A stretch of DNA of 44,012 nucleotides from an uncultured bacterium (GTDB taxonomy: Bacteria; Zhuqueibacterota; QNDG01; DTFT01), in the NCBI GenBank assembly GCA_963736115.1, contig CAVTNR010000004.1, positions 1 through 44,012 of the forward strand, in the 5' to 3' direction. The position numbers were made by a program, and so were the translations under genes. Below, piece after piece: positions 2,679 through 22,488 of the stretch. The notes below the pieces were generated by a model. That model was not told the origin of the DNA and ran no database searches. It saw only the letters and a list, made by a program, of their open reading frames with translations. How positions within the stretch are numbered: the first letter of the stretch is position 1; the number at the start of each line of letters is the position of its first letter.

Positions 2679-2738
2679 GCAAATATTTGCCAAGCGGATC
2701 TGTGAATGAGTGCCGTAAAGCTGTGTCTACAACAAGAA

Positions 2739-2818: not shown

Positions 2819-2825
2819 GATCCAT

Positions 2826-3975
2826 CTATCTCCCGCTCAGATGATACTCGATCAGCTTCCCGATCACCGTATCCATGGCCCCGGGAGTCGTGCTCGCGCA
2901 GATGTTCGTGGCCGCGATAACGCCGAACTTCCGGTTCGGGGCGAGCCAAGCGACCGCGAAATTGTACGTATTGCTCCCGGAATGCGTCATCGCCTTCCCC
3001 TCCGCCCAATCCCGCTGAAGCACGATCCACCCGGCCGCATAGGATCCTTCCCCGGGCATGGGAGTCGCGCCCGTCGTCAGAACCGCCGCGGTCTCGGCAC
3101 TCAGGCCGACAGGATTACCGGCTTCGCATGCCAGAACCCACTGGATATACCTGCCCCAATCGCCGATGGACATGTGGAGCCTGCCCGCGGAGTTGTATAC
3201 CGAAGGATTATCCGCTGATTCCGTGGGTTCAAGGGGCTTGTATTTCGGAGAATGCTGAAGGGGTCTGGTCCTCCAAACCGATAGTGCCCATGGGGCCCCA
3301 TCCGGCTGTTGTGATTCCCAGCGGACCGAGAACACGCTCAAACAGGAGGTCCTCATAAGGAGTACCGGTCAGCTTGTCCGCAATTGCCGCGGCAATGATA
3401 TACCCGACATTGCTGTAATTGTAAGTGCCCCTTGCATTGGTCGGGTTCTGCTGAAGCGCCCAGGAGGTGACTTCCCTCCTCTGCTCGACGATTGTTGGTG
3501 TCGTCATCTGAGAAGCGACGTTCCCGACCAGTCCGCTTCCATGGGACAGAACATCTTTAACAGTCACGGATTTATACTGATCTTGCATGATTTCAGCATA
3601 CTCTGGAAAGATGGCCGGCAATGTCGTGTCCCAGGTTAAAAGTCCATCGTCGACCAGGTATCCGACCAGGACAGCCGTGAGCGCTTTCGTGTCCGAGCCA
3701 AGATGGAACTTGTCATTATCCGTCACATTCGCCTCTCCGGCGTATCTCCGGCACCCGACAGCTCTTGCCTCCACCACACCCGTATCCGTGACGACCGCAC
3801 CCGCCAGAGCTGGAAGGTCGTAAGCATACCGGAGCGAATCCAGTATTGTTGCAAAACGGGAGTCATGAACAGTCGGGGCTGGCGGTTGGGGCTTATCCGA
3901 ACCAGTCGAGGATTTTCCGCAGGAGTTGGAGGTTATCACAATGAACACGAATGACAGCAGGAAGCATCTCTTCAT
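2826..3975 (-). pseudogene. Serine hydrolase (beta-lactamase/AmpC-like family) lipoprotein, split by a +1 frameshift near 3264 (possibly a sequencing error)
   Basis: ORF 3229-3975 has a lipobox-like SNSC, SxxK (GSDTK), LSHGSGL and YSN. ORF 2826-3356 supplies the C-terminus with HSGS. Removing one base at about 3264 gives a continuous GLEDQPLQHSPK. Confidence 0.8.
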
Positions 3976-4138
3976 CTGGTTCCCCTTCCGGATCTCTTTT
4001 GGGTGGTTATTACCGTAAAATACTCAATTATTTCTGAAAAGTGAAGCTCGGACTCAATGTTCAGGATGAAGGGACAATCATCCAATTTTAATGCCTGTCA
4101 CAAGAGGCTCAATTATCGACAGGACAGGAAACATCGAG

Positions 4139-5905
4139 CTAAAACGTATTCCTCACCCCCACATGCACCTTGCCCCTCGACAGGCTGCCGCCCTCGCCGA
4201 GCCCGTAATCGACTCCCACAACCCCAAGCCGCGTTTCCAGACGGATACCCAGGCCGTAACCGAAAACCGTATCCTCCACCCGAAAACCGGACTTTTCACG
4301 ACGCTGGTAGGTTCCGATATCCATGAAAAGAAAAGCTCTGGACCTGGGTCCGAAGAGGTAGCGGTACTCGGCGTTCAGCCAGGCGGCCTCAGAGGCGCGG
4401 AAAGCATCCTCCTCATACCCCCGCACGGTCAGAGTGCCTCCGAATCGAATCTGATCCGCCAGAGGCACTGCGCCTTCCCCGGTTTCAACCTCCCTGCCGT
4501 GCAGGCCGAGGTAAACCGCCTGACGCCTGAAGGTCGGCAGAACCGCTTCCACATCCGCGGACAGGAAACGGGTGTTCGAAGAACGGACCAGGCTGTCCTC
4601 CGCGATCAGGTAGGTTGGCCCCAGATTCCGCTTGCGGCCGAAAGAAACCGTGGAACGGGTTCTGGCCCCGCGCCTGGGATTCACCGGATCGTCTAAAGCG
4701 TTGTAATCCGCGGAAAAGGACACGAACCAGGTCGAATTCCTCGGCACGCGCGAAATCGCGCTTCCGAGAGAATCCGGGAGAATGAACTTCCGTCCCGCCT
4801 GTACAGCCGCGGACAGGGATGGCCAGGGCGCGGCCCTGACAGCCGCCTGCCATTCCCGCTCCACATAAGTCGTGTCGCGTATCTCCTGCCTGAAATATAT
4901 GCCAGGATAAAGGGGCTTTCCAAACAACCAGGGCTCCTCATAACCGAAACGGATGTTCTGCGTGCGCTCGTCCTTCTTCTCCCAGAAAGCCTCGAGCTTG
5001 CGGCCCGTGCCCATGAGGTTCTGGAACTCGAACTCCAGCCTGCCCGTGAAATAGCCCTTCGCGTCCAAATCCTCGGTCCTGGGGGGATTGTAACCGATCA
5101 CGCCGTCAAAGGTGTTCGTTCCGCCTTCCTGCACCGTGAAGGAAACATCCGCTTTGTCTGCGTAAAAACGCAGATCCGGATCCTGCACGTCCTTGAAATA
5201 GCCCAGCCGCCGCAGGTTGGCGGTCGCGGCTTCGACATCCCTTGTGCGGAAAACCTGGCCCGGTTTCAGCCGCGTTTCCCGCAGAATGACGTACTTTCGG
5301 GTCAGGGTATTGCCGGACGTGTTCAGGTTTCCTATTATAACCTGCGGACCCGCGGTCACATCCAGATCCGCTTCGATTCCGTAACCGTCCGGAGCCGGGT
5401 AAACGGACTGTATCGTAACCGAGGCCAGGGGACGGCCCTGGTTGGACAGATGGGACAGGATGCGGGACATGCCGGATTGCAGACGGGATTCCATGAATGG
5501 AGAACCGGGATCCATGTCGAGAATCTCCCGCAATACCGGGCTCTCGTTTCCGTCCATGCGGATGCGGATGTTTCCCGTTCTGGCGACAGGACCTTCGGTC
5601 AGCCAGATTTCAAGCCTGAGTCTTCCATTCTCCATTTTTTCAAAACGGATCGAGTCGACGCGGGAGTCGAAGTATCCGTCGTTTTGATATGCCTCTAAAA
5701 GTTTTTCTATGGATTGATTCGGCCAGTCTTTTGGCAGAGGGCTGCCGGGTTTTATCGCAAGGGATTGGACGATTTGGGACGTGGACAGGTGTCTGCGGCC
5801 GTGGATACGGATGTCGCCGATCACGGAGGAGTCCTGGTGAGCCGCGAGGGAGACGCCGAAGGTTATAAGGGAATAGAGCAGGATTTGTTTTATCGTTCTA
5901 TTCAT
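4139..5905 (-). CDS. Omp85 (BamA/TamA-family) outer-membrane protein with POTRA domains
   Basis: Signal peptide; POTRA-like IRIHGRRHLS and SGNTLTRKYVILRE...RLGYF; barrel NLMGTGRKL, VRGYEE motif, GYGLGIRLETRLG; terminal Phe. Confidence 0.88.
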   Translation of the reverse strand: MNRTIKQILLYSLITFGVSLAAHQDSSVIGDIRIHGRRHLSTSQIVQSLAIKPGSPLPKDWPNQSIEKLLEAYQNDGYFDSRVDSIRFEKMENGRLRLEIWLTEGPVARTGNIRIRMDGNESPVLREILDMDPGSPFMESRLQSGMSRILSHLSNQGRPLASVTIQSVYPAPDGYGIEADLDVTAGPQVIIGNLNTSGNTLTRKYVILRETRLKPGQVFRTRDVEAATANLRRLGYFKDVQDPDLRFYADKADVSFTVQEGGTNTFDGVIGYNPPRTEDLDAKGYFTGRLEFEFQNLMGTGRKLEAFWEKKDERTQNIRFGYEEPWLFGKPLYPGIYFRQEIRDTTYVEREWQAAVRAAPWPSLSAAVQAGRKFILPDSLGSAISRVPRNSTWFVSFSADYNALDDPVNPRRGARTRSTVSFGRKRNLGPTYLIAEDSLVRSSNTRFLSADVEAVLPTFRRQAVYLGLHGREVETGEGAVPLADQIRFGGTLTVRGYEEDAFRASEAAWLNAEYRYLFGPRSRAFLFMDIGTYQRREKSGFRVEDTVFGYGLGIRLETRLGVVGVDYGLGEGGSLSRGKVHVGVRNTF

Positions 5906-5936
5906 TTATTTCAATAACCCCACACACTACCCATGG

Positions 5937-6006
5937 ATCCCCGATAGAAGAATTCGGGGATGACATTTCACCAACCTTCGGGAGGCTCGGAACCTCCCGG
6001 AGGTTG
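5937..6006. repeat. Two REP-like palindromes between the large OMP and the Omp85 gene
   Basis: ATCCCCGA-9 nt-TCGGGGAT followed by GAC (5937-5964); CAACCTTCGGGAGG...CCTCCCGGAGGTTG (5972-6006), which resembles the 2739-2776 element. Confidence 0.6.
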
Positions 6007-6037
6007 AATGGTCGCACCGCGAAGCGGCGCTTCAGTA

Positions 6038-9000
6038 TCAGAAAAACGCCCTCACCTCCACCTGGCCCGCGTGGAAGATTTTCGGCCGCCAGGGCTCGCG
6101 GCGTGCGCGGTACGAAAACGTGGCAGTTGCATGGCCGGACAACCGGTAGGTCATGATCCCGTTCACACGCACCGTGCGTCCCGGCTGGTCGCCCGTGAGC
6201 ATTTCATACGGCAGGGTCCTGCCCTTGGGCTCCACGGACACGCTCCCGGCCTCCAGCTCCAGCCTGAACTGGCCGCGGGTTTTCAGGGAAAAAGTCACAC
6301 GCGGCATGAGGAAAAGGGAGCGGGCAGACGTGGCTGGATCCGGCTCCTCGTCATCCGCGATCCTGGCCTTGACTTTCAGCGCCAGCTCGATGTCCTGCCT
6401 CGGCCGGTAAGATCCTTCCGCGGTCGCCGCGTCGACACGGATGTTCCGGTCCTGCCGCAGGGCCTGGATATAATCTTTTTTCTCCCCGGACCGCTCCACC
6501 TCGACCAGAAGCCCGACCAGGCGTGACGGGCTGGCCTTGACCCTCAGCCCGCTGCCGGAAGCCCGGCGGATCTGGCCCTCGTTGAGAAGCTGACGGTTTT
6601 CGGAATCGTCGCTTCTGAGCCGCAGGCGGACGTTCAGTCCGGCGCCCCGCGTAGTGTATTCCACGTCCTGCATCAGAGACACCACGCCGGACACGGTCGT
6701 GGAATCCGTTCCCCACACGGGACTGAAAGCCCTGCGGTTCACGGTCCCGAAGTCGCGGGTCCTGTCCTTGCGCTCGACGCGCGCCAGGGACCGGGTCTGG
6801 AAGCCGGAGATGAAACCGGCCAGTCCCCCGGCTTTGCGCCATTTCTTCGACGCGTCGATCTTCACATCCGCTTCGGTTTCGACCGCGTTCACGGGCGTGA
6901 AGCGACCGGTCTGTATGGTGCGGAACAGCACGTCGCCGTCCATGTCCGGCACGTATTCGCCGAGGGACTCGTCGAAACGGTAATCGCCCAGGCCGGCGCC
7001 TATTTTAATCGTGTCCGTGGCCATCTCGGACACCTGAGTGGACGAAAAGCGGTAGTTCAGGTCCGCGGAAACAACACGGCTTCCCGGCGAATAGCCGAAA
7101 CGCGCTTCCGCGAGGTCGGTTTTCTGGTCCTGCGCCGAGGGGCCGGTGTAGTCGCGCGTCCGGTGCGTAAAAATCAGGGACGAGGACAGGCCGCCGTCCG
7201 TCCGGGCTTCGAGCCCGAAGCGATCCGTCCTGGCCAAGGAATTCCTTTCCAGAATGCCTTGTCTGTAAACCCGGTCGTCGCGCATCGAAGAACCGGCCTC
7301 GAGACGCAGGGAACTGCGATTGAACGCCAGCTTCCCGGCCCATTCGTCGAAGCGGAATCCGGCCGCGGCGGAATCCGGCGTGGAATTTCTGCGATGCTCG
7401 CCCTCATAGGTGACGGAAGGATTGAGCATCTTCCATGGACCCTGGACGTTTCCGCTGTGGCGCAGCCAGGCACCCGTGGTTCCCGGACCGATGCGGGAGT
7501 CAATCCATTCCGCGCCGTAATGGACCAGGGGATCGCCGCCCGCGGACCGGGCCCAGGTGGCGGAAGCGGACCTGCGCTCGGAGCTGAATGTCCCCCGGCT
7601 GAACGATCCGAAGCCGGCATTCAGGCTCATGCGCAGGACCGGCGCATACGCGGCGGTGAATTCGGCGGACCGCTCGCCCCACGTCACACCCTCCGAAGCC
7701 CCCCACTTGCGGCCGTGCTCCACGTCCTCGGTTCTGCCGAGCGGCCTGAACGCGTCGTCCGTTCTGCGCAGGCGGCCGTCGAATGCGATGCGTCCCAGCC
7801 CGAGGCCGCCGATTCTCAGGCCGCGTTCCGACACGGTCAGGCGTCCGGTCGCCGCCTTGCCGGTGTTGTCTCCGTCGTCCCGGCCGGAAAACAGGTTCCG
7901 GTCCAGGTGGCTCAACGCCACTTCCCCGTCCAGCACGACTCCGGCCAGAGGCTCGAATGCCGCGCCCGCGTCCGCGATCTGCTGTCCGGACGCCAGGGGC
8001 AGGAAAATAACGGGAAGGTACACGCCTTTTCCCGGGCCCTCGTAACGGTAAATGTCGTATCCCTGAAAACTGTAATCGCCCTTCGCAGGCCCCACGTAGG
8101 AGAAATGCACGGACCAGTCGCCGTTTCCCAGTCCGCGGTACAGGTACACAGTGTTCCCCAGGGAATCAACTTTGGAGTAGTTTCCCTTGCCGGGGCCCGC
8201 GTATTTGGCGCCAGCGGTCACGGCCGAATCCGCGGCATCTCCCGCGGACCGGAGAACGGACCGGACTTCGTCCGTGATCGTCAAATCGAGCGGATTGTCC
8301 TTGTCATCCGACTCGGAAATAAAGGCGCCGCGCAGGCGGATGCGGTTCTTCCACGCGGTCATGGCCCCGGCCGCGCCCATCATCTGCCTCTGGTACTGGC
8401 GGCCCGAATATTCGAAATCCACCGTGATGCGCGATTCGGCGGTGACCAGGCATTTGCGGGTGAAGGTGATCTGGCCGGTGGCGTACTCGATGACATAGTC
8501 GTTGTCCTCGCCCCGCGTCAGCGGCCGGCCGTCCATCCAGACCTTTTCCGTGCCGGCCAGGACGATGATTTCTAGCGTGCCGCCCTCGCCCGTGAGCTGA
8601 TAGGGCCCCTGGTTGCCCTCGGTTCCGTTGAAATGGCTGGTCGTGAACTCGCCCCTGGATGCGGCCGCGAAAACCGTGACCGACCCCAGGCTTCCCTCGG
8701 CCGTCCCGGTCGCGCCCTGGAGCTTGCGCGAATACGCGGCCAGGCTCGATGCAGGCGCCTGAAACTGGAAGTCGCCGAGCGTGGCCCTGAAATGCGGCGC
8801 CCGGATTTCGATGAACACCTTGTCGATTTCCTGCAGGGTCTGGGTGTTGCCCTCGGGCTGGATCGGCGTGTTTTGATCCGTGAGAGACGCGACCACCTCA
8901 ACGTCCGAGGCGATGCGGCCCGACACCTGGAGCCGCAGGCCGGACTGGAGCCGCATGCCCTGATCCGTGCCCAGGCTCACACCCCGGAAAATGGACCCGC

Positions 9001-9445
9001 TTTTCTGGAGATTGTCCGCGAAATCATCAGCCGGGGGTCGAACCCTGGCGCGGCCGGTTGCAGGGACCGACACGGCGGACCGCGGCGCGCCGTCCGCCGT
9101 GTCCGGAGCGGATGCCGTGTACATCCGTACCGCGGTTTCGAGTTTCAGCGGCAGGCTCCTGAAACGGACGCGTATGACTTTTCCGGAATCAGGCGGCCGG
9201 GTGAAGCGGATTTCGCCGGCTGTCTCGCGGACTGTGTAGTCGCGCCATCGCTGGAGCGCTTGGGAGTCCACGAAAACGGAATCCGAACCGGGTACGATGA
9301 AAGGCCTGCCGAGTGAAAGCACGGTGTCGCGGCCCGCGGACAGATGCTCGATCCTGTGCAGGGCCGGATCCTGAAACCGGAGTGTCTGGCCCATGGAGGA
9401 GGCGGCCGTTGCGAGGATGAAAGTGAAGGGAAGTATCCGGTTCAA
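6038..9445 (-). CDS. Large predicted outer-membrane beta-barrel protein of unknown function (1135 aa)
   Basis: Signal peptide, conserved-looking block SGLRLQVSG...TDQNTPIQPEGNTQTLQEIDKVFI, many amphipathic strands, C-terminal EVRAFF beta-signal. Confidence 0.75.
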   Translation of the reverse strand: MNRILPFTFILATAASSMGQTLRFQDPALHRIEHLSAGRDTVLSLGRPFIVPGSDSVFVDSQALQRWRDYTVRETAGEIRFTRPPDSGKVIRVRFRSLPLKLETAVRMYTASAPDTADGAPRSAVSVPATGRARVRPPADDFADNLQKSGSIFRGVSLGTDQGMRLQSGLRLQVSGRIASDVEVVASLTDQNTPIQPEGNTQTLQEIDKVFIEIRAPHFRATLGDFQFQAPASSLAAYSRKLQGATGTAEGSLGSVTVFAAASRGEFTTSHFNGTEGNQGPYQLTGEGGTLEIIVLAGTEKVWMDGRPLTRGEDNDYVIEYATGQITFTRKCLVTAESRITVDFEYSGRQYQRQMMGAAGAMTAWKNRIRLRGAFISESDDKDNPLDLTITDEVRSVLRSAGDAADSAVTAGAKYAGPGKGNYSKVDSLGNTVYLYRGLGNGDWSVHFSYVGPAKGDYSFQGYDIYRYEGPGKGVYLPVIFLPLASGQQIADAGAAFEPLAGVVLDGEVALSHLDRNLFSGRDDGDNTGKAATGRLTVSERGLRIGGLGLGRIAFDGRLRRTDDAFRPLGRTEDVEHGRKWGASEGVTWGERSAEFTAAYAPVLRMSLNAGFGSFSRGTFSSERRSASATWARSAGGDPLVHYGAEWIDSRIGPGTTGAWLRHSGNVQGPWKMLNPSVTYEGEHRRNSTPDSAAAGFRFDEWAGKLAFNRSSLRLEAGSSMRDDRVYRQGILERNSLARTDRFGLEARTDGGLSSSLIFTHRTRDYTGPSAQDQKTDLAEARFGYSPGSRVVSADLNYRFSSTQVSEMATDTIKIGAGLGDYRFDESLGEYVPDMDGDVLFRTIQTGRFTPVNAVETEADVKIDASKKWRKAGGLAGFISGFQTRSLARVERKDRTRDFGTVNRRAFSPVWGTDSTTVSGVVSLMQDVEYTTRGAGLNVRLRLRSDDSENRQLLNEGQIRRASGSGLRVKASPSRLVGLLVEVERSGEKKDYIQALRQDRNIRVDAATAEGSYRPRQDIELALKVKARIADDEEPDPATSARSLFLMPRVTFSLKTRGQFRLELEAGSVSVEPKGRTLPYEMLTGDQPGRTVRVNGIMTYRLSGHATATFSYRARREPWRPKIFHAGQVEVRAFF

Positions 9446-9613: not shown

Positions 9614-10399
9614 TCACTGGTACGTCGAATATGTGAAAATCGAATTCCTCGAAGGCGTGATGGAGCCCAGCGTGTGGTCAATGCCGTAGCAGTATTTCGA
9701 GAAGGGCCTCTGGTGCAGGCCGAACCTCCGGATGAGCGCGATGACCCACTGGGGCACGAGCGGCTCGACCTTGATCTCGAGCAGAACGGGCGATTCCGAG
9801 TGCAGGGTGGTGACGGGGTCGTCATAGAAAACCATGTCCGATTCCCGGTAATCGAGGTCCGTTGAGCCGCGCGCCAGGCGGTAGCAGAGACTGCGGTCGA
9901 ACGTGATGCGGCCGTACGATTCGAGCGTGAAGACGTAGGGTTCTCGGAAATAACGGACGTGCAATACGGGGTTCGCGCCGGTCCAGTGCAGGATATCCTC
10001 GAAACGGTCGAGCCGCTCCAGGATCTCGGGCTCGCGCCGCTCGGCCGGCGCGACCTCGAACAGACCGGGGAAATGGTCGACCGGCAGCCGGTACCGCTTC
10101 TTCCAGATCACGCTTCCCTGGCGGTACTTGATCTCGGGCCATATCCATTCGCCGGCCTTCACGCCGTAATAACGCGCCCTGGCCTTGTAGCGCATGGGCT
10201 TGCGAAACTTGGTATCGTAGTAGAACTTGAGGGAAGGCGTATCGAAATACAGATTGTTCACGGTGTAGCCCGGCTCGCCGCAGTGCACGTGCCGGTCCAG
10301 TCCGACCATCGGCGCGATGTACTCCTTGATCGCCGCGGCCACGTCTTCGGTGATCGCGTACTTCAGCTCGTATCTCCGGATATCAACGAGATCCTTCAA
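9614..10399 (-). CDS. VTC-domain (polyphosphate polymerase-like, CYTH/TTM tunnel fold) protein
   Basis: Motifs RRYELKY, NLYFDT, KARARYY, EIKYR, YFREPY, RITFD, LLEIK, FSKYC. Start reassigned to TTG at 10399 behind GGAGG, because the ORF-track extension overlaps tolC. No signal peptide. Confidence 0.88.
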   Translation of the reverse strand: MKDLVDIRRYELKYAITEDVAAAIKEYIAPMVGLDRHVHCGEPGYTVNNLYFDTPSLKFYYDTKFRKPMRYKARARYYGVKAGEWIWPEIKYRQGSVIWKKRYRLPVDHFPGLFEVAPAERREPEILERLDRFEDILHWTGANPVLHVRYFREPYVFTLESYGRITFDRSLCYRLARGSTDLDYRESDMVFYDDPVTTLHSESPVLLEIKVEPLVPQWVIALIRRFGLHQRPFSKYCYGIDHTLGSITPSRNSIFTYSTYQ

Positions 10400-10421
10400 T
10401 GCGCCTCCGGCGGATGAGCAG

Positions 10422-11741
10422 TCACTGCGCCTGGGGCAGGCTGTCCACGCCCATGGCAAAGAGGAGCTCGGACAGGGCATAGTCCAGGTCCCGCCGCTTC
10501 CCGGCCAGTTCCCGCCTGGCGTCGATGACGTCCAACTCCAGCTCGAGCATTTCATCGGAACGGACGGTTTCGTATCCCGGCGCCAGACGGAGGACGTCCT
10601 CGGCCTCCCGGGTATGGGTGTCGGTGGCCGCGCTGAAATTGTCCCAGTCGAGCCGCAGGTCGCGATACAGCTCGTACGCGGCCTGCACCTCTTCTGCGAT
10701 GGATTCGAGAACGCCCTCGACGCGCGCCTCGCGCTTCCGCACGGCCAGGTTGACGGCTTTGATGTTGCCGATGTTCCAGTTGAACAGCGGAACGTCGAAT
10801 CCGGCGCTCACCTCGCCCCAGTCTTTGGGCCGGGTCTTCTCGCGGTGGTAGGAGAACTGGATGTAGTTAAGCTGGGGCAGGAGCTTGAAGCGCTCATAGT
10901 CCCTCTGCTTCCGGGCGAGTGAAATTTCCTGGCGGACCAAAGCCGCTTCGGGACGGTTTTGGGAGGCGACGGCCACGGCTTCGTCCAGACCCGCCGGTGC
11001 CCCGGGCGGGACCGGGCTCTCCTGAACGGCCACGTCCTGGGAAAGGCCCGTCCGCATGGCCAGGTGCCGCCTGGCCGCGGCCTGCTTCTGCACGGCCCTG
11101 GCCAGGTCGTTCCGAGCCTCGGTCCGCATCGACTTGGCTTTCATGTAGTACACGACAGACCGGTCTCCCGTCTGCAGCAGGTTCTCGATCATCCCGATCC
11201 TGCGGTCGAGCAGGCTCACCTGTTTCTCCGCGAGCGCGGCCAGCTTGTCCGCCGCGATGACGTCCGCGAAGTCGCGGCGCACCCGGCCGGTCAGCTCCTG
11301 CTCGTACCGTATTTTCTCCAGCTCAATTTCCACGAGGTCGGTCCTGGCTTTCTCCCTGTCCTCGGTCAGTTCTCCGAGATCCGGAATCCGCACCCGCAGG
11401 GCCGCGCGCATTTCGTCGAAATCGTCGTCGTAACTCTGCCGGGTCACGTTGCTGATGCGGATTTCGGGGTTTTCGGGCTTTCCGGCGGAGGCGAGCCTGT
11501 GTCGCGAGATCTCCACGTTCGCGGTCAGGGACTGGAGCCTCCGGCTCCGTGCCAGGGTTTTCGCGATAACGGTGTCCTCGGTGACATACGCGCCGGACCG
11601 GGCAACGGCGAAGATGCGGCCCGACACGGCCGTGTCCGCGGGCTCCGCGGCGGAAATACGGACCGGGAAGGCGGCCAGAGCCAGGCAGACCACAGCGGCC
11701 GCTGGACGCAGACGGGATGACGTTTGTGGATGCCGCCTCAT
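10422..11741 (-). CDS. TolC-family outer-membrane efflux protein
   Basis: Signal peptide; long helical repeats; AVAVASQNRPE, LLPQL, AGFDVPLFNWNIGNI and terminal LFAMG patterns; adjacent to a HlyD-like gene. Confidence 0.8.
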   Translation of the reverse strand: MRRHPQTSSRLRPAAAVVCLALAAFPVRISAAEPADTAVSGRIFAVARSGAYVTEDTVIAKTLARSRRLQSLTANVEISRHRLASAGKPENPEIRISNVTRQSYDDDFDEMRAALRVRIPDLGELTEDREKARTDLVEIELEKIRYEQELTGRVRRDFADVIAADKLAALAEKQVSLLDRRIGMIENLLQTGDRSVVYYMKAKSMRTEARNDLARAVQKQAAARRHLAMRTGLSQDVAVQESPVPPGAPAGLDEAVAVASQNRPEAALVRQEISLARKQRDYERFKLLPQLNYIQFSYHREKTRPKDWGEVSAGFDVPLFNWNIGNIKAVNLAVRKREARVEGVLESIAEEVQAAYELYRDLRLDWDNFSAATDTHTREAEDVLRLAPGYETVRSDEMLELELDVIDARRELAGKRRDLDYALSELLFAMGVDSLPQAQ

Positions 11742-12778
11742 CCGCCCTCCGGGGATATATGCACGTTCACCACCTCGCCCGGAAGCAGGGCGTGGCTGGA
11801 ATCGAGTGCGACGCGGACTTTGCGGGCCCAGAACAACTGGCCCCGGAACGAAAGACGCTCAGGCGCGCGCGAGATTCCGGGGGCCGTGAATATCACGGTT
11901 CCCCGCGAGTCGTATTTACGGCCCCGCTGAGATGAGATGCGGACCGACACGCCGGAATCCGGCCGGATGGACGTTTTCTCCGGCAGGTAGACGGTCATAT
12001 AGGCCGGCCTTCTCTCCTCCACCGTGATGAGTGAGTCGAAATCCTCGACCACATCCCCGGGCCTCGCATTGATGTCGGTCACCACGCCGTCGATCGGGGA
12101 CACCAGAGACCGCATGCGGATCTGGCTCTCCAGGAGCAATCTTCCGCGCCGAGACTCCTCGGGATGCGCCGGACGCTTCCCGGGCACGGATCCCGACAGG
12201 CTGTCCAGTGCCGCGGGCTTCAGCATCTGAACAGCCCTGCGAAGCCCGGACGCCTCCCTTGACAGCCGCTCCTTCTCGCCGTGCTGGATCCGCATATAGG
12301 CTTCGAGTCCGTCCCTCTGGAGGATGAGGCCGTGCAGGTCCCGGCTGGAGCCGAGACCTGCCTTTTCCGCGTTCTGGAACCGCTCGATCTGACTGTTGAG
12401 CGTGGCCAGCTGAACCTCACTGGACTCGAGAGTCGCGACCCGGTCCATGAGATCCGCGGCCTCATTTTCGAGCTGGAACCTCAGCCTCTGCATCTCCACC
12501 GCGGGAAGGCCTTCGGTCAGGTCGGACACATCCAGCACGGCTATGACCTGGTCCTTGCGTACGGAATCGCCGACTTCGACCATGAGCGCGGCGATCCGGC
12601 CCGGCTCCTGCGGTCCGAGGTAATGGGCCCTGCGCTCCACGATGCCGATGACGTTCCGGCCGACAAACCACCGGAAGGCCAGGCCCGCGACGGCCAGCAA
12701 TGCGGCCAGCCACAGGAGATTGTATGCGTGGCGGCGGAGCTGAAGCCGGATTTTCCCGGAGTTCACGGCCGGCCTCAT
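11738..12778 (-). CDS. HlyD-family periplasmic adaptor (membrane fusion protein)
   Basis: N-terminal TM anchor; split lipoyl motifs GRIAALMVEVGDSVRKDQVIAVLD and SPIDGVVTDINARPGDVV around a coiled coil; C-terminal LLPGEVVNV. Confidence 0.85.
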   Translation of the reverse strand: MRPAVNSGKIRLQLRRHAYNLLWLAALLAVAGLAFRWFVGRNVIGIVERRAHYLGPQEPGRIAALMVEVGDSVRKDQVIAVLDVSDLTEGLPAVEMQRLRFQLENEAADLMDRVATLESSEVQLATLNSQIERFQNAEKAGLGSSRDLHGLILQRDGLEAYMRIQHGEKERLSREASGLRRAVQMLKPAALDSLSGSVPGKRPAHPEESRRGRLLLESQIRMRSLVSPIDGVVTDINARPGDVVEDFDSLITVEERRPAYMTVYLPEKTSIRPDSGVSVRISSQRGRKYDSRGTVIFTAPGISRAPERLSFRGQLFWARKVRVALDSSHALLPGEVVNVHISPEGG

Positions 12779-13452
12779 ACTTCCACCGTCGCTTCCTGAT
12801 TGATGTAGGTCAGCCCCCGGATGTCCCTGACCTTACGCAGTTCCGCGATCAGGCTCTCCTGGTCACCGGGATTCGCCAGCCGCACCTGGTAGGAATAATC
12901 GAAGGCCTGGCCCTGGGCCACGTCGCGCAGGGTAACCAGGACGAAATGCTTCGTCCCGGAACGCAGGATTTGGGTCACTTTTTCCGCCGCGTCCGGATGG
13001 GCCGGAAGCTGAAAGCGCAGGAGCCCGTCGTGCTTCCGCCTCGCGCCGAAAGGCGACACGTTCAGGGCCGTTGCGACGAGGCAGAACACCGCGGAGCCCG
13101 TGACGGCCGTGGCATAGCTCTGCACGCCGCAGCTCACGCCGACGCCCAGGGACGCGAATATGAAGACCAGGTCCCGGGGCTCGCGCAGGTTGGTGCGGAA
13201 GCGGATGATGGCCAGGGACCCGACAATGCCGATGCCCCGGGCGATGTTGTCGCCGATCGAGATCATCAGGAGACAGGTGACGATGCTGCCGAGAATCATG
13301 CTCTGCACTAGTCCGCGCGAGTATGACAGGCCCTGGTAAGTCTTCTCGTACAGGAGCGCGATGCAAGTGGTCAAAAGAAAGGTCAGCAGGAAGGAGAGGA
13401 GCGCGACCTGCCATTCGATCTGTTCGAATCCGTAACTGAGAAGTGTCTGCAT
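12775..13452 (-). CDS. DUF4956-family inner-membrane protein (MgtC-like TM bundle plus small C-terminal domain)
   Basis: Signature IGDNIARGIGIVGSLAIIRFRTNLREPRDLVFIF; several hydrophobic helices; family typically found beside VTC-domain genes. Confidence 0.88.
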   Translation of the reverse strand: MQTLLSYGFEQIEWQVALLSFLLTFLLTTCIALLYEKTYQGLSYSRGLVQSMILGSIVTCLLMISIGDNIARGIGIVGSLAIIRFRTNLREPRDLVFIFASLGVGVSCGVQSYATAVTGSAVFCLVATALNVSPFGARRKHDGLLRFQLPAHPDAAEKVTQILRSGTKHFVLVTLRDVAQGQAFDYSYQVRLANPGDQESLIAELRKVRDIRGLTYINQEATVEV

Positions 13453-13586
13453 TCAGTGTTCCTCGATCCAGTTGCGTCCGCCGGCCGGTCCGGAACCGGC
13501 CGAATCCCGGCGCCTTTGGCGCCGGGTATCAGCCTATAATATAGTAAGAAATCCGCCGGTTTCCATACGGGATGGTCCGTTCGTAC

Positions 13587-13684: not shown

Positions 13685-14662
13685 TCAGGGCGACTCCCGT
13701 TCATCCGGCCGCGGCCATTCGAATACGTGGACTTCCGATCTTTCCCGGTCGAGCACGAAAATCCGGCCGTCCCTGTATACGGCATCCACGGGTACGCCAA
13801 ATCCGCCGTCCGGCACGATTTCACGGCCGAACGAGCCGGCCGCCGCCCATTTGCGGAACCAGTGAACGCGCTTGTTCCCGGAATCGCAGACGAACAGGAT
13901 GCCGCCGTCCGGCGTCTCGGCCATGCCGGCAGGCCGGTCGAGTGTTTCTTCGCCGAACGCGAAGAGATAATTGCCGTACGTGTCGAAAACGACTACCCGT
14001 CCCTCCTCCGCGTCGGTCGCCAGTACGCGGCCGGATCCGGTCACATGGATGCGCTCCGGCGATCCCAGGCGGCCCTCCCCGGAATCGACGCCGCCGAAAG
14101 CGATCTGCGGCGTCCCCCCGGGGCCGAGCTTGAGGATGCGGCGATTCTCCCCATCCAGGCAGAACAGCTCGGACTGCGGCGTGAAGAATACATCGAGCGG
14201 AAAATCAAAGGCCAGGGACTCAGCCCATCCGGAGGAGGCGCGCAGGGTGGAGATGTAATGCAGATCCTTGTCGTACCGCTCGATGCGGCCGTTGTCGACA
14301 TCCGCCACGAACACATCGAGCCCGTTTCCCGCCCACACGGAAACAGGGTCGTTGAAGCGCTCGCGTCCCCATCCGAAACCGCCGATGGCGGCCAGCAAGT
14401 TTCCGGCCCCGTCGAATTTCTGGATACGGTGGTTCCCCGTATCCGCAACATAGAGGTTACCGGATGGATCGGCGGAAAGAGCCCGCGGTCCGTCCATACG
14501 GCCCGGTTCCTGTCCGGGACCTCCGAACCGGCCGATATGCCGGGGCGGAAATCCGTCCCCCGGCTCCCGGCCGAAGACCGCGGCCGCGATCAGAGCCGGC
14601 AGAAGCAAGCCGAGGTAAAGACCGGCCGGTTTGCGACGATTGCCGATTTCACGTATCCGCAT
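13685..14662 (-). CDS. NHL-repeat beta-propeller protein, exported
   Basis: Repeats such as GPRALSADPSGNLYVADTGNHRIQKFD and DPVSVWAGNGLDVFVADVDNGRIERYD; hydrophobic N-terminal segment; start taken at MRIREIG. Confidence 0.85.
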   Translation of the reverse strand: MRIREIGNRRKPAGLYLGLLLPALIAAAVFGREPGDGFPPRHIGRFGGPGQEPGRMDGPRALSADPSGNLYVADTGNHRIQKFDGAGNLLAAIGGFGWGRERFNDPVSVWAGNGLDVFVADVDNGRIERYDKDLHYISTLRASSGWAESLAFDFPLDVFFTPQSELFCLDGENRRILKLGPGGTPQIAFGGVDSGEGRLGSPERIHVTGSGRVLATDAEEGRVVVFDTYGNYLFAFGEETLDRPAGMAETPDGGILFVCDSGNKRVHWFRKWAAAGSFGREIVPDGGFGVPVDAVYRDGRIFVLDRERSEVHVFEWPRPDERESP

Positions 14663-14688
14663 GGGTGATTCCCCGGCTTGAAGTGACT

Positions 14689-16461
14689 TCATTCCAGCGG
14701 CCGCCATCCGGTCCGGGATAACTCCTCGTCCGTCAGTTCCGGCAGGATGTCGTCCGTCGTGCCAGGCCGGCCGTCCGGACCGGCGGACAGCAGTGTGTAG
14801 GTTTCTCCGGACGGATCCAACCTGTAAAAAAACGGAACAGCCGCTCCAGCTTCTCCTCCGCTTGCCGGATCCAGGAATTGGATCAGGGTGTCGCCCCCGG
14901 CCGCAAGCATGGGGAGGGATTCAGGGTAAACGCTCGTCCGCTCCCGGTACGCCTCAGCCGCGTGGACTAAACCGCTGAGACGCATACGCGTTTCAGCGGT
15001 CGTCGATTCCCTGGACGATTTTAAAGCCGCCGGTTTCGGTTCGAAACGACTGATAAAGGCTGAGGTCGAGATCAGCCCGCCTAGGACGGCCAGGGCGATG
15101 ATGCGGCCGCCGCCGGAGCGCCTTCTCGTCCAGCCGTAGAATACGGCGGCGGACGATACGATCGGCCCGATAACCGGGATAAACGAAGCAATCGCCAGAG
15201 CGTATCCGGGCCAGCCGATGGACTGATGGATTTTCTGCTCTCGGTCGAAGGCCAGGCGCTCGGCCGCGATCATGGATTCGATGCGGAAACGCTGAATGTC
15301 CGGGTCTTCCTGCGGAAGTTCGGCCTTCGGACGGCCGCTTGCGGCGGGCTGCGACTGTGCCTGTTGCGGAACCGCATTCCCACCGGCATGGTTCAGGGGA
15401 TCCGCGGGGATCATGGGTTCCAGTTCCGCAACGCCCCCGGCTTTGAGAAAAGCCTCCTGGTATCGGAGAGCCGTATTCCGGTCCACTCCGGATTTGACGC
15501 TCACGGGCCGGCCGGAGAAAAGCGCGTCCGCCCGGCGGCTGTCCAGCCTGAAAGCGGCGGTCAGGGCGGCTTTCACATGTTCGTGATTCTTTCCTTCTGC
15601 TACCGTGCCGTTGAAAACCACGCGATACAGCCTGCCGTCTCCGGTATCCGTTTCCGACCGGGCGGCCGGAACCGAGGCCCCGCGGTTTTCATGCTGCAGA
15701 CCGGAACTTGAACCGGCCCTCCTTCCCTCGGGTTCCCGCGGATTCCCGGAGGAGAGCCCGCGGGTCCTCAGCGGGATGCCGTAACCGCGTTCCGTTTTCC
15801 CGATGTTCCACCACAGGACATGGAGCGGCCACAGCGGGCCCGAAGAACGGATGGAACGGACCAGATCGGACTCCCTGTCCGTCCAGGCCGCCAGCCAGCC
15901 GGAATTGTCCGCGTCCGCGGCATGCTTTCCGCTTTCCGACAGGAGCCTGACGCCTTCGAGGTGTTCAGCGATGAGTTCCAGGGGATCGTCCGTCCTGACC
16001 AGGAGCAGCCGTCTTCGGAACGGCCTTGGTTCATGCCGGGTCCGGCTGTCCGTCGTCGTGGTCAAGTCTCCCCCATCATCGAGAAAAGTGGCGCATTCGA
16101 AGGAGACTTTGTTTTCTCGCTGCCTGACGCAGAAGAGCATGGACCCGTCCGGTTTCCGGAAGACGCGCATCCGGTTTTCCGGAAGAGTCGGCCGAGTGAA
16201 ATCGCCGATTCGCTGCAAACCGGCTCCTTCCGCGAGATCGGACGTGAGACTGAACCCTGGAGAATCCGGCCGCCCCGGAGCGGAAGCGTCCCGCTGCCAG
16301 GAGGGTCTCGCCGAAACATTATGCCGTGTCACGAGGCCGGCAATCAGCAGTATGTATAATGGAAGACAGACGAATACGGAAACCGGCCACGGAATTCTCA
16401 GCGTGAACACGAGGGAAATGAATGCGGCCGCGGATAACGCAGCCAGCGCTCCGGCTTTCAT
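14689..16461 (-). CDS. Multidomain membrane protein ending in a type II secretion GspG-like C-terminal domain
   Basis: Start reassigned to MKAGALAA (16461). N-terminal TMs; internal YRVVFNG...ADALFSGRPVSVKSGVD...LKAGG domain; TM pair; C-terminal YPESL...DP...FYRL...YTLLSAGPDGRPGTTDDI. Confidence 0.65.
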   Translation of the reverse strand: MKAGALAALSAAAFISLVFTLRIPWPVSVFVCLPLYILLIAGLVTRHNVSARPSWQRDASAPGRPDSPGFSLTSDLAEGAGLQRIGDFTRPTLPENRMRVFRKPDGSMLFCVRQRENKVSFECATFLDDGGDLTTTTDSRTRHEPRPFRRRLLLVRTDDPLELIAEHLEGVRLLSESGKHAADADNSGWLAAWTDRESDLVRSIRSSGPLWPLHVLWWNIGKTERGYGIPLRTRGLSSGNPREPEGRRAGSSSGLQHENRGASVPAARSETDTGDGRLYRVVFNGTVAEGKNHEHVKAALTAAFRLDSRRADALFSGRPVSVKSGVDRNTALRYQEAFLKAGGVAELEPMIPADPLNHAGGNAVPQQAQSQPAASGRPKAELPQEDPDIQRFRIESMIAAERLAFDREQKIHQSIGWPGYALAIASFIPVIGPIVSSAAVFYGWTRRRSGGGRIIALAVLGGLISTSAFISRFEPKPAALKSSRESTTAETRMRLSGLVHAAEAYRERTSVYPESLPMLAAGGDTLIQFLDPASGGEAGAAVPFFYRLDPSGETYTLLSAGPDGRPGTTDDILPELTDEELSRTGWRPLE

Positions 16462-16605
16462 GTCTCTTCCGGCGAGTAAATGACCCCGCTGCAAGCAGCG
16501 GAGGTTTACAGGAAAATAGGATGATGGGCACTGCCCGCTGCGCGGGACCAAGCTATTATAAACCTTCTGGTTGAAGGCAAGCGGCGCTGTATCGGACTCG
16601 TCGGA

Positions 16606-16674
16606 GCTGTCAGAAGCCCGCATCAACCGACGTTTAAGTGTAATATTTTAATTGGTCAGCGGGCTTCTGACAGC
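16606..16674. repeat. 16-bp perfect inverted repeat with AT-rich 37-nt spacer
   Basis: GCTGTCAGAAGCCCGC (16606-16621) and GCGGGCTTCTGACAGC (16659-16674). Confidence 0.8.
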
Positions 16675-16704: not shown

Positions 16705-16733
16705 AAAATAGGTATTTTTGGGGGGAATGTCAA
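16705..16733 (-). promoter_or_regulatory. Sigma70 promoter overlapping the trpG stop codon
   Basis: Minus strand TTGACA-17 nt-TATTTT. Confidence 0.6.
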
Positions 16734-17293
16734 GACAGATTTAGGAAATTGGAGAGAATGCGCTTTCCTTCGGATGTCAGTATCGATTCCGGATGAAATT
16801 GCAGGCCTTCGACCGGATCTTCCTTGTGACGGATTCCCATGATGGTCCCATCGTCGGTCCACGCCGTCACCTCGAGACAGTCCGGCAGGCTGGCTCGGTC
16901 CACCACCAGGGAATGATAGCGCGTGGCATCGAAGGTCTTCTCCAGGTTGCGGAAAACCGTCCGGCCGTCATGCCGGATGGCCGATACCTTGCCGTGCACG
17001 GGCACGGCCCGGATCACGCGGCCGCCGAACGCCTCTGCGATGGACTGATGCCCCAGGCATACGCCGAGCACGGGACATCGGCCCTTCATCGCAGTGACGA
17101 GCGGAACCGAAATGCCGGCATCAGCCGGTATTCCGGGTCCGGGCGAGATCACCACGGCCTCAGGACCAAGCGCCACAACGTCGGCCACGCTCACCTCATC
17201 GTTGCGGCGCACTTCGAGCCTGCGGCCGGTCTCGCCGATCAATTGGACCAGATTATAGGTAAACGAGTCGTAGTTGTCGAGAATGAAAACCAT
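16730..17293 (-). CDS. trpG: Anthranilate synthase component II (glutamine amidotransferase)
   Basis: ILDNYDSFTYNL, ISPGPG, GVCLGHQ, RYHSL, QFHPES; located in the trp operon. Confidence 0.93.
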   Translation of the reverse strand: MVFILDNYDSFTYNLVQLIGETGRRLEVRRNDEVSVADVVALGPEAVVISPGPGIPADAGISVPLVTAMKGRCPVLGVCLGHQSIAEAFGGRVIRAVPVHGKVSAIRHDGRTVFRNLEKTFDATRYHSLVVDRASLPDCLEVTAWTDDGTIMGIRHKEDPVEGLQFHPESILTSEGKRILSNFLNLS

Positions 17294-17314
17294 GAATCCC
17301 TCCGTTTCGGGCTC

Positions 17315-18853
17315 TCAGCCCTCGGCCGTTCCTGATGCCGTTTCCGCCGACGTTCCCGCCGCCGTGACCGCCTGGAAAAGCGCGCGTGCCTTGTTCAACG
17401 TTTCCTGGTATTCCTTCGCCGGGTCCGAGTCCGCGACGATTCCCGCGCCGGCCTGCAGACTGCCCTCGGCGCCCCGGAGCACGAGCGTCCGGATGGCAAT
17501 GCACATGTCCATGTTGCCGCCGAAGTCGAAATAACCGATCGAGCCGCCGTACACGCCCCGCCGTTCCGGTTCGAGTTCGTCGATGATCTCCATGGCCCGG
17601 ACCTTGGGCGCGCCGGACACCGTGCCCGCCGGAAAGCACGCCGAAAAGCAGTCGAACGCGTCCTTGTCCGGCCGGAGCCGGCCTGTGACATGCGATACGA
17701 GGTGCATGACCCTGGAGTAGCGCTCGACCGTAAAGAGCTCCGAGGCCCGGACGGAGCCGAAGCGGCAGACCCGGCCGATGTCGTTGCGCGCGAGGTCCAC
17801 GAGCATGACATGTTCCGCGCGTTCCTTCTCGTCCGCCTTCAGTTCCGCCTCGAGGCGGAGATCCTCCTCTTCCGTGCGGCCCCTGCGGCGCGTGCCCGCG
17901 AGCGGCCGGATGGAAACCCGGCCCGCCTCGGCTTTGACGAGAATTTCAGGCGAAGACCCGAGAATGCGAAGGTCCTCGAGGGCCAGGTAATACATATACG
18001 GAGACGGATTGGCCAGCCGGAGCGCCTCGTACATCTTCAGCGGATCCGTGCGCACCGGAAAAGTGAAACGCTGGGACAGCACCACCTGAAAGGCGTCTCC
18101 GGCGAGTATGTACTCCTTCGCCCGGCGGACGGCCGCCTCGAACTCCGGCCGGGTCATATGGGAACGGAACGAATCCGGTCCGGACTCGTCATCCGGTTGA
18201 CAGGAAAGAGCAAGGACGGCTGCATCCGGATCAGGACCGGGATCTGAAGCGCTTTCCGTAACCGGCAAGTCTCCCAGTGAATTACACAGGTCCGTGAGTT
18301 CGAGAAGCCGGTTCTCGGACGGATCGTCCGAATGGATCACGATGTCCACGGTTTTCTCGAGATGATCGAATACCAGAACCTCCTCGGGGAACATGAAAAA
18401 AAACTCGGGTACTGCCGTAGGGTCTGGGTTGGAGTCCGGAATGCGTTCGAACCGGCGTATGGCGTCATACGACACAAAACCGACCGCGCCGCCGGAGAAA
18501 GGCCTCACCGAGGCGTCCATGCGGGCTTCGTTCACCAGGCGGCGCAGGACCTCAAGCGGGTGGCCTTCTATCCGGTGCGTGATCCAGTCCGGATCCGTGG
18601 CTCCCGGTTCCGGACCGGCGGACCGGGCCGGCCGGACGCGGACCTGGATGTCCTGTCCCGAGGCCTTGAACACAGCATAGGGTTTTCCGCCGAGAAACGA
18701 GTACCGTCCCCGCTTGCCGTCGCTCTCGAGGGACTCGTAGAGAAAGCCGAACGTTTCAGCCGCGTACAGGGCTTCGAAAGCAGACACCGGCGGCCATAAG
18801 GCCGGTATCCTGCGGTGGTGCACGATTCGGCGGGACAGGAGAGGATCGTTCAC
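17315..18853 (-). CDS. trpE: Anthranilate synthase component I
   Basis: GDAFQVVLSQR, NPSPYM, SSPE, PLAGTR (not the PIKGT of PabB), EHVMLVDLARND, SGAPKVRAM, QAGAGIVADS. Confidence 0.93.
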   Translation of the reverse strand: MNDPLLSRRIVHHRRIPALWPPVSAFEALYAAETFGFLYESLESDGKRGRYSFLGGKPYAVFKASGQDIQVRVRPARSAGPEPGATDPDWITHRIEGHPLEVLRRLVNEARMDASVRPFSGGAVGFVSYDAIRRFERIPDSNPDPTAVPEFFFMFPEEVLVFDHLEKTVDIVIHSDDPSENRLLELTDLCNSLGDLPVTESASDPGPDPDAAVLALSCQPDDESGPDSFRSHMTRPEFEAAVRRAKEYILAGDAFQVVLSQRFTFPVRTDPLKMYEALRLANPSPYMYYLALEDLRILGSSPEILVKAEAGRVSIRPLAGTRRRGRTEEEDLRLEAELKADEKERAEHVMLVDLARNDIGRVCRFGSVRASELFTVERYSRVMHLVSHVTGRLRPDKDAFDCFSACFPAGTVSGAPKVRAMEIIDELEPERRGVYGGSIGYFDFGGNMDMCIAIRTLVLRGAEGSLQAGAGIVADSDPAKEYQETLNKARALFQAVTAAGTSAETASGTAEG

Positions 18854-19659
18854 CGGCCGCCCCCCCGCAGGCCGCGGACTTTCAGCCCCGCTTCATGCCG
18901 TGTCGCGTCCTTGAGGCTCCGGACCAGGGCGGCGATGTTCTCGCCTTGCGCCGCGGCCCGGACGATTCGGCTTCCCACGATGACGCCGTCCGCAAGCCTT
19001 GAAAACCGTTTCACATGCTCCGGAGTGGAAACGCCGAATCCGACGGCCAGAGGCTTTTTCGTCTGCTTGCGCATGCGCCTGAGAAAGGATTCGGCGCCCG
19101 CGGCCACGGTGTTCCGGCTGCCCGTGGTCCCGGTAAGACTCACACAGTACACGAACCCGGACGATGCGGCTGCGATTTTCGCGAGACGGTCCGGGGGCGA
19201 TGTGGGAGCCGCGAGAAAAATCAGGTCCAGGCCGGCCTTGCGGCAGGCGACCGACCAATCGCCGGCTTCATCGGCCGGAAGATCGGGGATGATCAAGCCT
19301 TCAAAGCCCGCGGCTTTGAGCTCGCGGCACACCCGGTTCACGCCCCTGCGGTGGAGCGGATTGAGATAGGACATCAGGATCAGCGGGACCCGTCCGTTCA
19401 TGGAACGGGCGGCGCCGAAAACCGTGTCAAGGTCGGCCCCGTTTGCCAGCCCGATGTTCGATGCTTGCTGGATCACGGGCCCGTCCGCGATCGGGTCCGA
19501 GAACGGAAGGCCGATCTCGATGAAGTCGGCGCCGTTCTCCGCGAGCGTGCGCATGTTTTCGAGGAATTTTTCAATCGTCGGGTGGCCGGCCATGAGATAG
19601 GCCACGAGTCCGGCCTCGTTCCTGAACCGGAGTTCCTTCCATTTCTCGGACAGCGTCAT
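18850..19659 (-). CDS. trpA: Tryptophan synthase alpha chain
   Basis: [41 protein letters not shown]. Confidence 0.96.
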
Positions 19660-21559: not shown

Positions 21560-21580
21560 CTTTTCGTGTTCGTCTTTGAC

Positions 21581-22483: not shown

Positions 22484-22488
22484 ACGGC

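Follow-up and report, generated by a model that had tools for sequence, protein, structure and literature searches.

A conserved DUF4956-HlyD-TolC-VTC gene cassette as a candidate polyphosphate export machine of diderm bacteria

A cassette of four genes, encoding a DUF4956 protein, a HlyD-type periplasmic adaptor, a TolC-family outer-membrane factor and a VTC-domain protein, was analyzed in a 44,012-nt stretch of DNA (hereafter the window; positions 1 to 44,012 of contig CAVTNR010000004.1, assembly GCA_963736115.1) from an uncultured bacterium of the Zhuqueibacterota. Each of the four proteins belongs to the fold family named here, and the genes form a conserved and tightly packed unit. Since the identical gene order was found in 60 complete cassettes elsewhere, this arrangement is far beyond chance. 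As judged from the sequences, the four genes might encode one envelope-spanning machine that would make a phosphate polymer in the cytoplasm and release it to the exterior with no ABC, RND or MFS pump involved, a proposal that we consider about equally likely to be right or wrong. An earlier interpretation of the same DNA (the sequence-only reading) had already proposed a polymerase-driven exporter of polyphosphate (polyP), and as a whole it was partly supported.

Layout and conservation of the cassette

The cassette reads head to tail along the minus strand, in the order DUF4956, HlyD adaptor, TolC and VTC. The features considered are the following:

13536..13565 (minus strand): promoter-like hexamer pair upstream of the DUF4956 gene, a consensus match only
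12775..13452 (minus strand): DUF4956 protein of 225 aa, the proposed inner-membrane component (Pfam DUF4956, AlphaFold2 model)
11738..12778 (minus strand): HlyD-type periplasmic adaptor (membrane fusion protein) of 346 aa, short form (Pfam, AlphaFold2 model, Foldseek)
10422..11741 (minus strand): TolC/OEP-family outer-membrane factor of 439 aa (Pfam OEP)
10404..10408 (minus strand): GGAGG ribosome-binding site, 4 nt ahead of the VTC TTG start (sequence inspection)
9614..10399 (minus strand): VTC-domain protein (triphosphate tunnel metalloenzyme fold) of 261 aa, soluble, the proposed polyP polymerase (Pfam VTC)

The four co-oriented genes of the sequence-only reading were recovered as minus-strand open reading frames (ORFs) with the corresponding Pfam matches. 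Inspection of the sequence also confirmed the ATGA start/stop overlaps that it had reported between DUF4956 and HlyD (12775-12778) and between HlyD and TolC (11738-11741), as well as a VTC gene following after 22 bp with a ribosome-binding site of its own: the tolC stop TGA (10422-10424) is followed by a 22-nt spacer containing GGAGG and then by the VTC start, which could now be specified as a TTG (10397-10399). Because 21 homologues begin at the position of this TTG, the VTC protein was taken as the 261-aa product and not as the 313-aa product of the longest ORF, which runs from an ATG at 10555 within tolC. A promoter of its own had also been claimed for the unit. DUF4956 and the NHL-repeat gene are 232 nt apart, and in this gap the matches TGGAAA-16-TATATT and TGGAAA-18-TATTAT (minus strand 13565-13536) agree with the consensus at 9 of 12 positions, and 3 such sites were observed in the region against 0.6 expected from shuffles; what stands of the claim is this match to the consensus, which makes the pair a candidate promoter. 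At the other end of the unit, a GC-rich hairpin 3' of VTC was rejected as a terminator: it folds no better than shuffles (z -0.68), and the terminator scan was negative there.

Conservation was assessed in one scan of species-representative genomes with the DUF4956 alignment, which returned 72 loci with DUF4956 proteins 54-97% identical. The cassette genes in these loci were identified by profile searches of the locus ORFs with the four window proteins. The counts refer to this subfamily, the wider DUF4956 family comprising 5431 representatives at E up to 1e-3 and 2359 at 1e-10. The adaptor gene was located 3' of DUF4956 in all 72 loci. Where the contig runs on past the adaptor (67 loci), TolC was the next gene in 66; where it runs on past TolC (62 loci), VTC came next in 61. 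DUF4956 of this subfamily always comes with the cassette, and the linkage of hlyD and tolC to DUF4956 and VTC, on which the sequence-only reading depended, was found well beyond the window. The spacing of the genes is also retained, with a 4-nt HlyD/TolC overlap in 44 of 65 loci and a median gap of 4 nt between DUF4956 and HlyD across the related loci. The locus ending without VTC (L067) carries frameshifted genes and has about 440 nt of contig remaining, and in L011 an LTD (lamin-tail-domain) gene and one further ORF lie between DUF4956 and the adaptor. Four assemblies hold two copies of the cassette.

According to the record titles, the loci belong to about ten named groups overall: KSB1 (6), Neomarinimicrobiota (5), Latescibacterota (10), Calditrichota (2), Ignavibacteria (2), Myxococcota-type (17), 'Deltaproteobacteria' (4), Gemmatimonadota (3) and single titles for Cytophagia, Spirochaetales, Deferribacteres and Proteobacteria, with 19 of the 72 loci unclassified.

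The 474 flanking ORFs from the related loci were clustered, and a single cluster (c0), of LTD, CotH and type IX secretion system (T9SS)-tail proteins, occurred in more than 10 loci. Otherwise the flanks differ and the cassette alone is conserved. Because shared T9SS tails partly hold this cluster together, its 75 members were recounted by Pfam in place of the cluster count of 47 loci; those in L004, L008, L011, L021, L026 and L030 were glycosidases, sulfotransferases and similar proteins. The recount gave LTD proteins in 42 loci, CotH kinases in 30 and either of them in 44 of the 72. Many of these LTD/CotH proteins carry a T9SS sorting tail, and they are often encoded directly 3' of VTC. In L052 a second VTC gene (2290-3168) lies beside a CotH+LTD gene (3254-6130), 5 kb upstream of a full cassette. 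Two-component systems were found next to the cassette in 10 of the loci; Cthe_2159 and PPDK_N proteins each recurred in 4. Phosphate-related neighbours were seen in single loci, namely a PHO4 transporter with a PhoU-like protein (L070:12809-14460) and a calcineurin-like phosphoesterase; phosphate-related/PPDK_N entries were also present at L048:2011-4824 and L064:2241-4382. The gene 3' of VTC in L038 encodes a 1227-aa Ser/Thr kinase-AAA-TPR protein.

Regarding a possible pump, 247 ORFs lie within 2.5 kb of the cassettes, 85 of them in clusters c0-c3. Of the 162 remaining candidates 119 were scanned; the other 43 were set aside as short, as near-duplicates or because their cluster was already represented in the scan. 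Parts of efflux pumps were detected in 2 of these 119 neighbours, a MacB-like permease in L029 and an opposite-strand RND pump in L064, so the related loci as a rule carry no pump. In the window, ABC, RND and MFS domains were found neither in the cassette nor in the other 26 ORFs scanned (30 in total), in agreement with the pump-free unit described before.

The predicted polymerase and its membrane partner

The VTC domain (E 3.8e-31) is the sole Pfam family in the 261-aa protein. A single-sequence search against solved structures was uninformative, yielding only a chance match (GldL, E 0.15), and a profile search was therefore needed. A profile of 22 VTC homologues matched the yeast Vtc4 catalytic domain (3g3q) with an E-value of 2.8e-8 over positions 8-247. 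In this profile alignment K13, R74, R76, E208, S234 and K235 correspond to Vtc4 K200, R264, R266, E426, S457 and K458, and all six equivalents of the Vtc4 active site are invariant in the 22 sequences. The catalytic residues R264, R266 and E426 of Vtc4 are thus kept; a comparison with the catalytic Arg and Lys residues of Vtc4 had been suggested in the sequence-only reading. The roles of K200, S457 and K458 were reportedly described by Hothorn et al. in 2009. Since the Vtc4 active site appears intact, polyP is the most likely product of this enzyme. As stated in the available text on the yeast complex, catalysis is impaired in Vtc4 R264A/R266A/E426N, and Vtc4 feeds a channel lined by basic residues (PMC9911596). 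Neither an SPX domain nor Vtc1-type transmembrane subunits were detected by Pfam in the VTC protein or its neighbours. The 'VTC domain' mentioned in the available part of PMC6514570 was discarded as the zinc domain of Vms1, which is unrelated to the polyphosphate VTC domain.

The DUF4956 protein matched Pfam DUF4956 (PF16316) with an E-value of 1.4e-12 and 48.1 bits against a gathering cut-off of 30.6. Its alignment consisted of the window protein and 38 close homologues, all of 224-235 aa and 68-85% identical, and all 39 aligned proteins matched the family. The motif IGDNIARGIGIVGSLAIIRFRTNLR.PRD is invariant in these 39 sequences; across 105 diverse DUF4956 members R86 does not vary, and the conservation of R84 is at least 90%. 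Furthermore, MgtC (PF02308) was matched below the cut-off in 39 of 39 aligned members (best E 2.1e-5; 16.1 bits against a cut-off of 31.4), ACT_4 was matched in 5 of the 39, and the NCBIfam MgtC model matched the DUF4956 protein with an E-value of 7e-4.

The AlphaFold2 model built from the 105-sequence alignment reached a mean predicted local distance difference test (pLDDT) of 88.1. It contains five helices (residues 14-38, 46-66, 69-86, 92-109 and 113-132) and a C-terminal beta-alpha-beta-beta-alpha-beta, ACT-like domain (143-218), for which the Foldseek matches included several ACT domains and also 2lqj, the C-terminal domain of MgtC (rank 11, target-normalised template modelling score 0.56). 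From the loop charges on the modelled helices we infer an N-out, C-in topology, which would place R84, R86, R90 and R93, together with the ACT-like domain, on the cytoplasmic face. Taken together, the profile matches and the model characterize DUF4956 as a distant MgtC-like protein with a predicted cytoplasmic ACT-like domain. The resemblance is weak. About five membrane helices and a C-terminal ACT-like domain are shared with the MgtC family (MgtC/SapB/YhiD), whereas DUF4956 falls below the Pfam MgtC threshold, carries a signature motif of its own around R84-F85-R86 and occurs in another gene context. In correction of the sequence-only reading, DUF4956 is unrelated to the Vtc1-type channel of the eukaryotic complex.

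Several sequences found in a search for longer relatives join the parts of the cassette. P0271 (481 aa) consists of VTC followed by DUF4956 and P0274 (466 aa) of DUF4956 followed by VTC, and these opposite domain orders indicate independent fusions. In P0272, encoded on a 2-kb contig, DUF4956 is fused to an adaptor, and in P0273 it is joined to a phytase-like domain. A complex of DUF4956 and VTC was also predicted, with a score of 0.38 against 0.00 for the best of 3 controls and a partner pLDDT of at least 74. Among 80 solved complexes 58 attained the mark used, as did 2 of 110 mismatched pairs, and the scores passing at 0.60 or under comprised 7 of the 80 solved complexes and both passing mismatches. 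The prediction is weak support for a DUF4956-VTC partnership.

Adaptor, outer-membrane factor and proposed mechanism

The adaptor matched the Pfam families HlyD_3 (9.3e-11), HlyD_D23 (2.3e-9) and Biotin_lipoyl_2. Its AlphaFold2 model (pLDDT 82.7) shows an N-terminal membrane helix (8-39), lipoyl strands, a beta-barrel (251-341) and two hairpin helices of 47 and 44 residues (93-139 and 146-189), with the invariant G141, L142 and G143 between them. The best Foldseek matches were EmrA (4tko, 1e-16), EmrAB-TolC (8zal, 1.7e-16) and MacA (3fpp, 2.7e-16), and MexA and AcrA were matched as well; the protein thus models as a complete EmrA/MacA-like adaptor. The window adaptor and its close relative in L003 lack about 20 residues of the first hairpin helix (alignment columns 93-116) that are present in most of the other 31 aligned homologues. 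The TolC protein matched Pfam OEP in two stretches (E 2.6e-23) and the NCBIfam TolC family below the cut-off (1.6e-7).

Two forms of the adaptor were distinguished among the related loci: 24 are short (about 350 aa, the window type), 41 are long (about 690 aa) and 3 are partial. The long adaptors, such as those of L005, L006, L023 (8679-10766) and L039, carry a C-terminal propeller-like domain of about 340 aa with weak DUF6929, DUF6910 and phytase-like matches and Atlas leads to DUF3616. A hidden Markov model (HMM) of this domain matched only adaptors, and no separate gene for it was found in the short-form loci. The NHL-repeat propeller protein of the window (13685-14707) was considered as a replacement for the domain and discarded, as the HMM matched no window ORF.

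The simplest reading of these data is that DUF4956 is the inner-membrane partner of the adaptor and TolC. This reading draws on the phyletic pattern, in which monoderms, according to the literature, have DUF4956 and VTC (with or without CotH) alone and the diderm subfamily adds the adaptor and TolC. These two are exactly the proteins needed for the periplasm and the outer membrane, which suggests a product destined for the exterior, where the T9SS-tailed LTD/CotH proteins go as well.

In the proposed mechanism, the soluble VTC enzyme would polymerise polyP from ATP while docked on the cytoplasmic face of a DUF4956 oligomer, the face that, given the N-out, C-in topology, would bear the invariant R84, R86, R90 and R93 and the ACT-like domain. 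The nascent polyanion would thread through DUF4956, driven by chain growth and by the inside-negative membrane potential, which favours the outward movement of a polyanion. The membrane-anchored EmrA/MacA-like adaptor would bridge DUF4956 to the TolC-type channel, through which the chain would exit the cell. Outside, the secreted LTD and CotH-kinase proteins, neighbours of the cassette in most relatives and absent here, could use the extracellular polyP, which may form part of the matrix or serve as a phosphoryl donor. In its widest form the proposal would see in DUF4956 an inner-membrane partner of a new class for the ducts of adaptor and TolC and, together with the soluble Vtc4-like polymerase, a polyP secretion system of about ten named diderm groups, with polyP as substrate or scaffold and phosphoryl donor for surface LTD/CotH kinases; we advance this extension tentatively, as a possible and rather doubtful one.

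A number of observations weigh against the export of polyP through such a machine. The patterns used in the scan (LMI[AS]IGDN and ARGIGIVGS) reach only the close subfamily of proteins 54-97% identical. TolC is missing from L038 (1288-3198), in which the adaptor is followed directly by VTC. The 44-kb window holds no LTD or CotH gene, cluster c0 having matched T9SS-tail proteins only, so the CotH association mentioned in the sequence-only reading holds for 30 of the 72 related loci and not for the window. The four fused proteins (P0271-P0274) are singleton metagenomic predictions that could reflect lost stop codons, and the DUF4956-VTC prediction is only a weak pass whose runs share at least 0% of contacts, that is, do not agree. 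Foldseek returned no solved structure resembling the membrane part of DUF4956. The entrance of E. coli TolC is electronegative and would be unfavourable to a bare polyanion. Finally, the bacterial VTC proteins have an invariant E11 at the position of Vtc4 T198, a position belonging to the ExExK motif seen in tunnel enzymes of the hydrolytic and cyclase kinds, and no biochemically characterised bacterial VTC-domain protein was found in the literature searched.

These last two points favour another chemistry for the same machine, in which VTC would hydrolyse triphosphate or ATP (or make only short chains) and in this way energise or gate DUF4956. What passes through the adaptor and TolC would then be not long polyP but, for example, a nucleotide, a triphosphate, a metal-phosphate complex or another anion. 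The glutamate in place of the Vtc4 threonine gives R-x-E-x-K, presumably nearer to a hydrolase-type motif, and the cassette contains no other energy-coupling protein. Nevertheless, the VTC domain is the best family match of the protein, with no CYTH match reported, the six polymerase residues are all matched, and tunnel-fold enzymes are not known to serve as transport motors. We regard this alternative as rather unlikely.

A regulatory function was also considered. PMC12345266 presents members of the MgtC family as regulators binding to other membrane proteins and not as channels, which likewise speaks against DUF4956 as a conduit; ATP synthase and PhoR are given there as targets of MgtC. DUF4956 could accordingly be an MgtC-like regulator or sensor, with the polyP made by VTC remaining in the cytoplasm, the adaptor and TolC serving a pump encoded elsewhere, and the genes being linked only through shared regulation, such as that of phosphate or metal homeostasis. 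The weak MgtC similarity and the ACT-like domain, typical of ligand sensing, would fit such a role, as would the two-component systems beside the cassette in 10 loci and the PHO4 and PhoU-like gene next to that of L070. However, the gene order and the 4-nt overlaps are retained across groups with wholly different flanks, the adaptor gene directly follows DUF4956 everywhere except in L011 (two intervening ORFs), and pump parts occurred in only 2 of the 119 neighbours. Adaptors of the EmrA/MacA type, moreover, are normally encoded alongside their inner-membrane partner. A purely regulatory DUF4956 seems to us distinctly unlikely.

The propeller-like domain raises the further alternative of a two-step route, in which VTC and DUF4956 would deliver polyP to the periplasm and the adaptor and TolC would take it over without a continuous sealed duct with DUF4956. 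The propeller-like domain with its weak phytase-like matches, found in the 41 full-length and 3 partial adaptors of the 72 loci, could bind phosphorylated periplasmic cargo, and the singleton P0273 fuses DUF4956 to a phytase-like domain. The window adaptor, however, lacks the propeller-like domain, no periplasmic binding step is evident here, and its N-terminal membrane helix is like those of EmrA and MacA, which contact the inner-membrane partner. This route is considered the least probable of those discussed, and improbable in itself.

Relation to known systems and surroundings of the cassette

The proposed export machine shares with the eukaryotic VTC complex (yeast Vtc4/Vtc3/Vtc1) the tunnel-fold catalytic domain with six equivalent residues and, as proposed here and reported in the available text of PMC9911596, a cytoplasmic synthesis feeding a basic-lined membrane passage. 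It differs in lacking an SPX domain and a three-helix subunit of the Vtc1 type, in an enzyme that is separate and soluble, in an MgtC-like membrane partner, in an exterior target reached through the adaptor and TolC instead of the vacuole, and in E11 replacing T198.

The DUF4956-VTC pair itself has been noticed in Gram-positive bacteria. In the accessible portion of bioRxiv 768473, cotH, a polyP polymerase, DUF4956 and DUF4832 form an accessory gene group next to the pel loci of Gram-positive bacteria, without an adaptor or TolC. Similarly, in the available text of PMC12345266, Streptococcus intermedius SIR_1592 has an MgtC membrane domain and ACT, SIR_1593 a polyP polymerase domain and SIR_1594 is a secreted CotH protein, with Pel levels and aggregation lowered when SIR_1592 or SIR_1594 is mutated. 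The same pair is present in the cassette, and CotH or LTD proteins accompany it in 44 of the 72 related loci; in contrast to the Gram-positive set as given in these sources, an adaptor and TolC are inserted between DUF4956 and VTC, and the window lacks CotH, LTD and pel genes. By comparison, the adaptor and TolC look like additions for crossing a second membrane. A table for Bacteroides thetaiotaomicron, in the part of PMC10434189 available, lists a DUF4956 gene adjoining a DUF2490 gene.

The closest precedent for the layout is the complex of BgsA (glucan synthase), BgsB (adaptor) and TolC proposed for mixed-linkage glucan in the available text of PMC13438883, which also cites a cyanobacterial cellulose export system of comparable type. 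Both systems, as far as described there and here by gene content only, combine a polymerising enzyme, a HlyD-type adaptor and TolC without a classical pump. However, the synthase of that system is an integral membrane translocase making a neutral glucan, whereas here a soluble polymerase, a separate small membrane protein and a predicted inorganic polyanion would be involved. With EmrAB-TolC and MacAB-TolC the cassette shares the best adaptor matches, the N-terminal membrane helix and a TolC-family partner, and it differs in that no MFS or ABC transporter gene was present among the window ORFs scanned. The sequence-only reading had presented the layout as lacking a characterised precedent. This holds to the extent that neither a description of the DUF4956-adaptor-TolC-VTC cassette nor a bacterial polyP exporter was found in the literature searched; the combination of synthase, adaptor and TolC had already been proposed for polysaccharides. 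By analogy, the logic of the cassette would extend the known synthase-adaptor-TolC systems and the principle of the eukaryotic VTC complex.

If the proposal were true, it would define a polyP export route in bacteria and would explain the frequent adjacency of secreted CotH kinases and polyP polymerase, the DUF4956, VTC and CotH genes being currently without an assigned mechanism. An MgtC-like protein and a Vtc4-like enzyme in the position of a pump are unexpected to a specialist. The available text of a review on tripartite pumps names ABC, RND and MFS transporters as the inner-membrane partners (PMC8277102). A further partner type beyond these three, and a molecular role for the MgtC-like fold, would be gained. 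With four genes and clear active-site residues, the cassette is directly testable in the laboratory.

The remainder of the window was also annotated, and the surroundings of the cassette look unrelated to it in function. The gene that starts 168 nt after VTC (6038-9445, minus strand) encodes a 1135-aa protein whose N-terminus is hydrophobic and resembles a signal peptide; in relatives this position is often occupied by LTD/CotH genes. No Pfam family was above the cut-off in this protein, which gave weak SprA and DUF2460 matches and an Atlas value of 0.99 to unnamed clusters of similar length. One long ORF of L001 (1146 aa) had suggested that VTC is fused to this downstream 1135-aa ORF; it was rejected as an artefact, since an N run (about 3820-3900) lies directly after VTC. 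Upstream of the cassette, the NHL-repeat propeller protein (13685-14707, minus strand) is preceded by a 645-aa protein without a known family (14689-16626, minus strand). Both of these neighbours also occur in L002 and L003 and are absent from more distant loci.

Further upstream, a complete trp set in the order trpD, trpC, trpF, trpB, trpA, trpE, trpG occupies 16730-23505 on the minus strand. A polysaccharide-utilisation-like stretch (31093-41899, minus strand) encodes a hybrid two-component regulator (Y_Y_Y, AraC) and a LacI regulator, along with a TonB-dependent receptor and a protein weakly resembling PorV. The hybrid regulator and the TonB-dependent receptor, together with the T9SS-tail proteins of the window, suggest that the DNA comes from one of the FCB-type candidate phyla. 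Proteins with T9SS tails are encoded at 443-2464 and 27222-27737.

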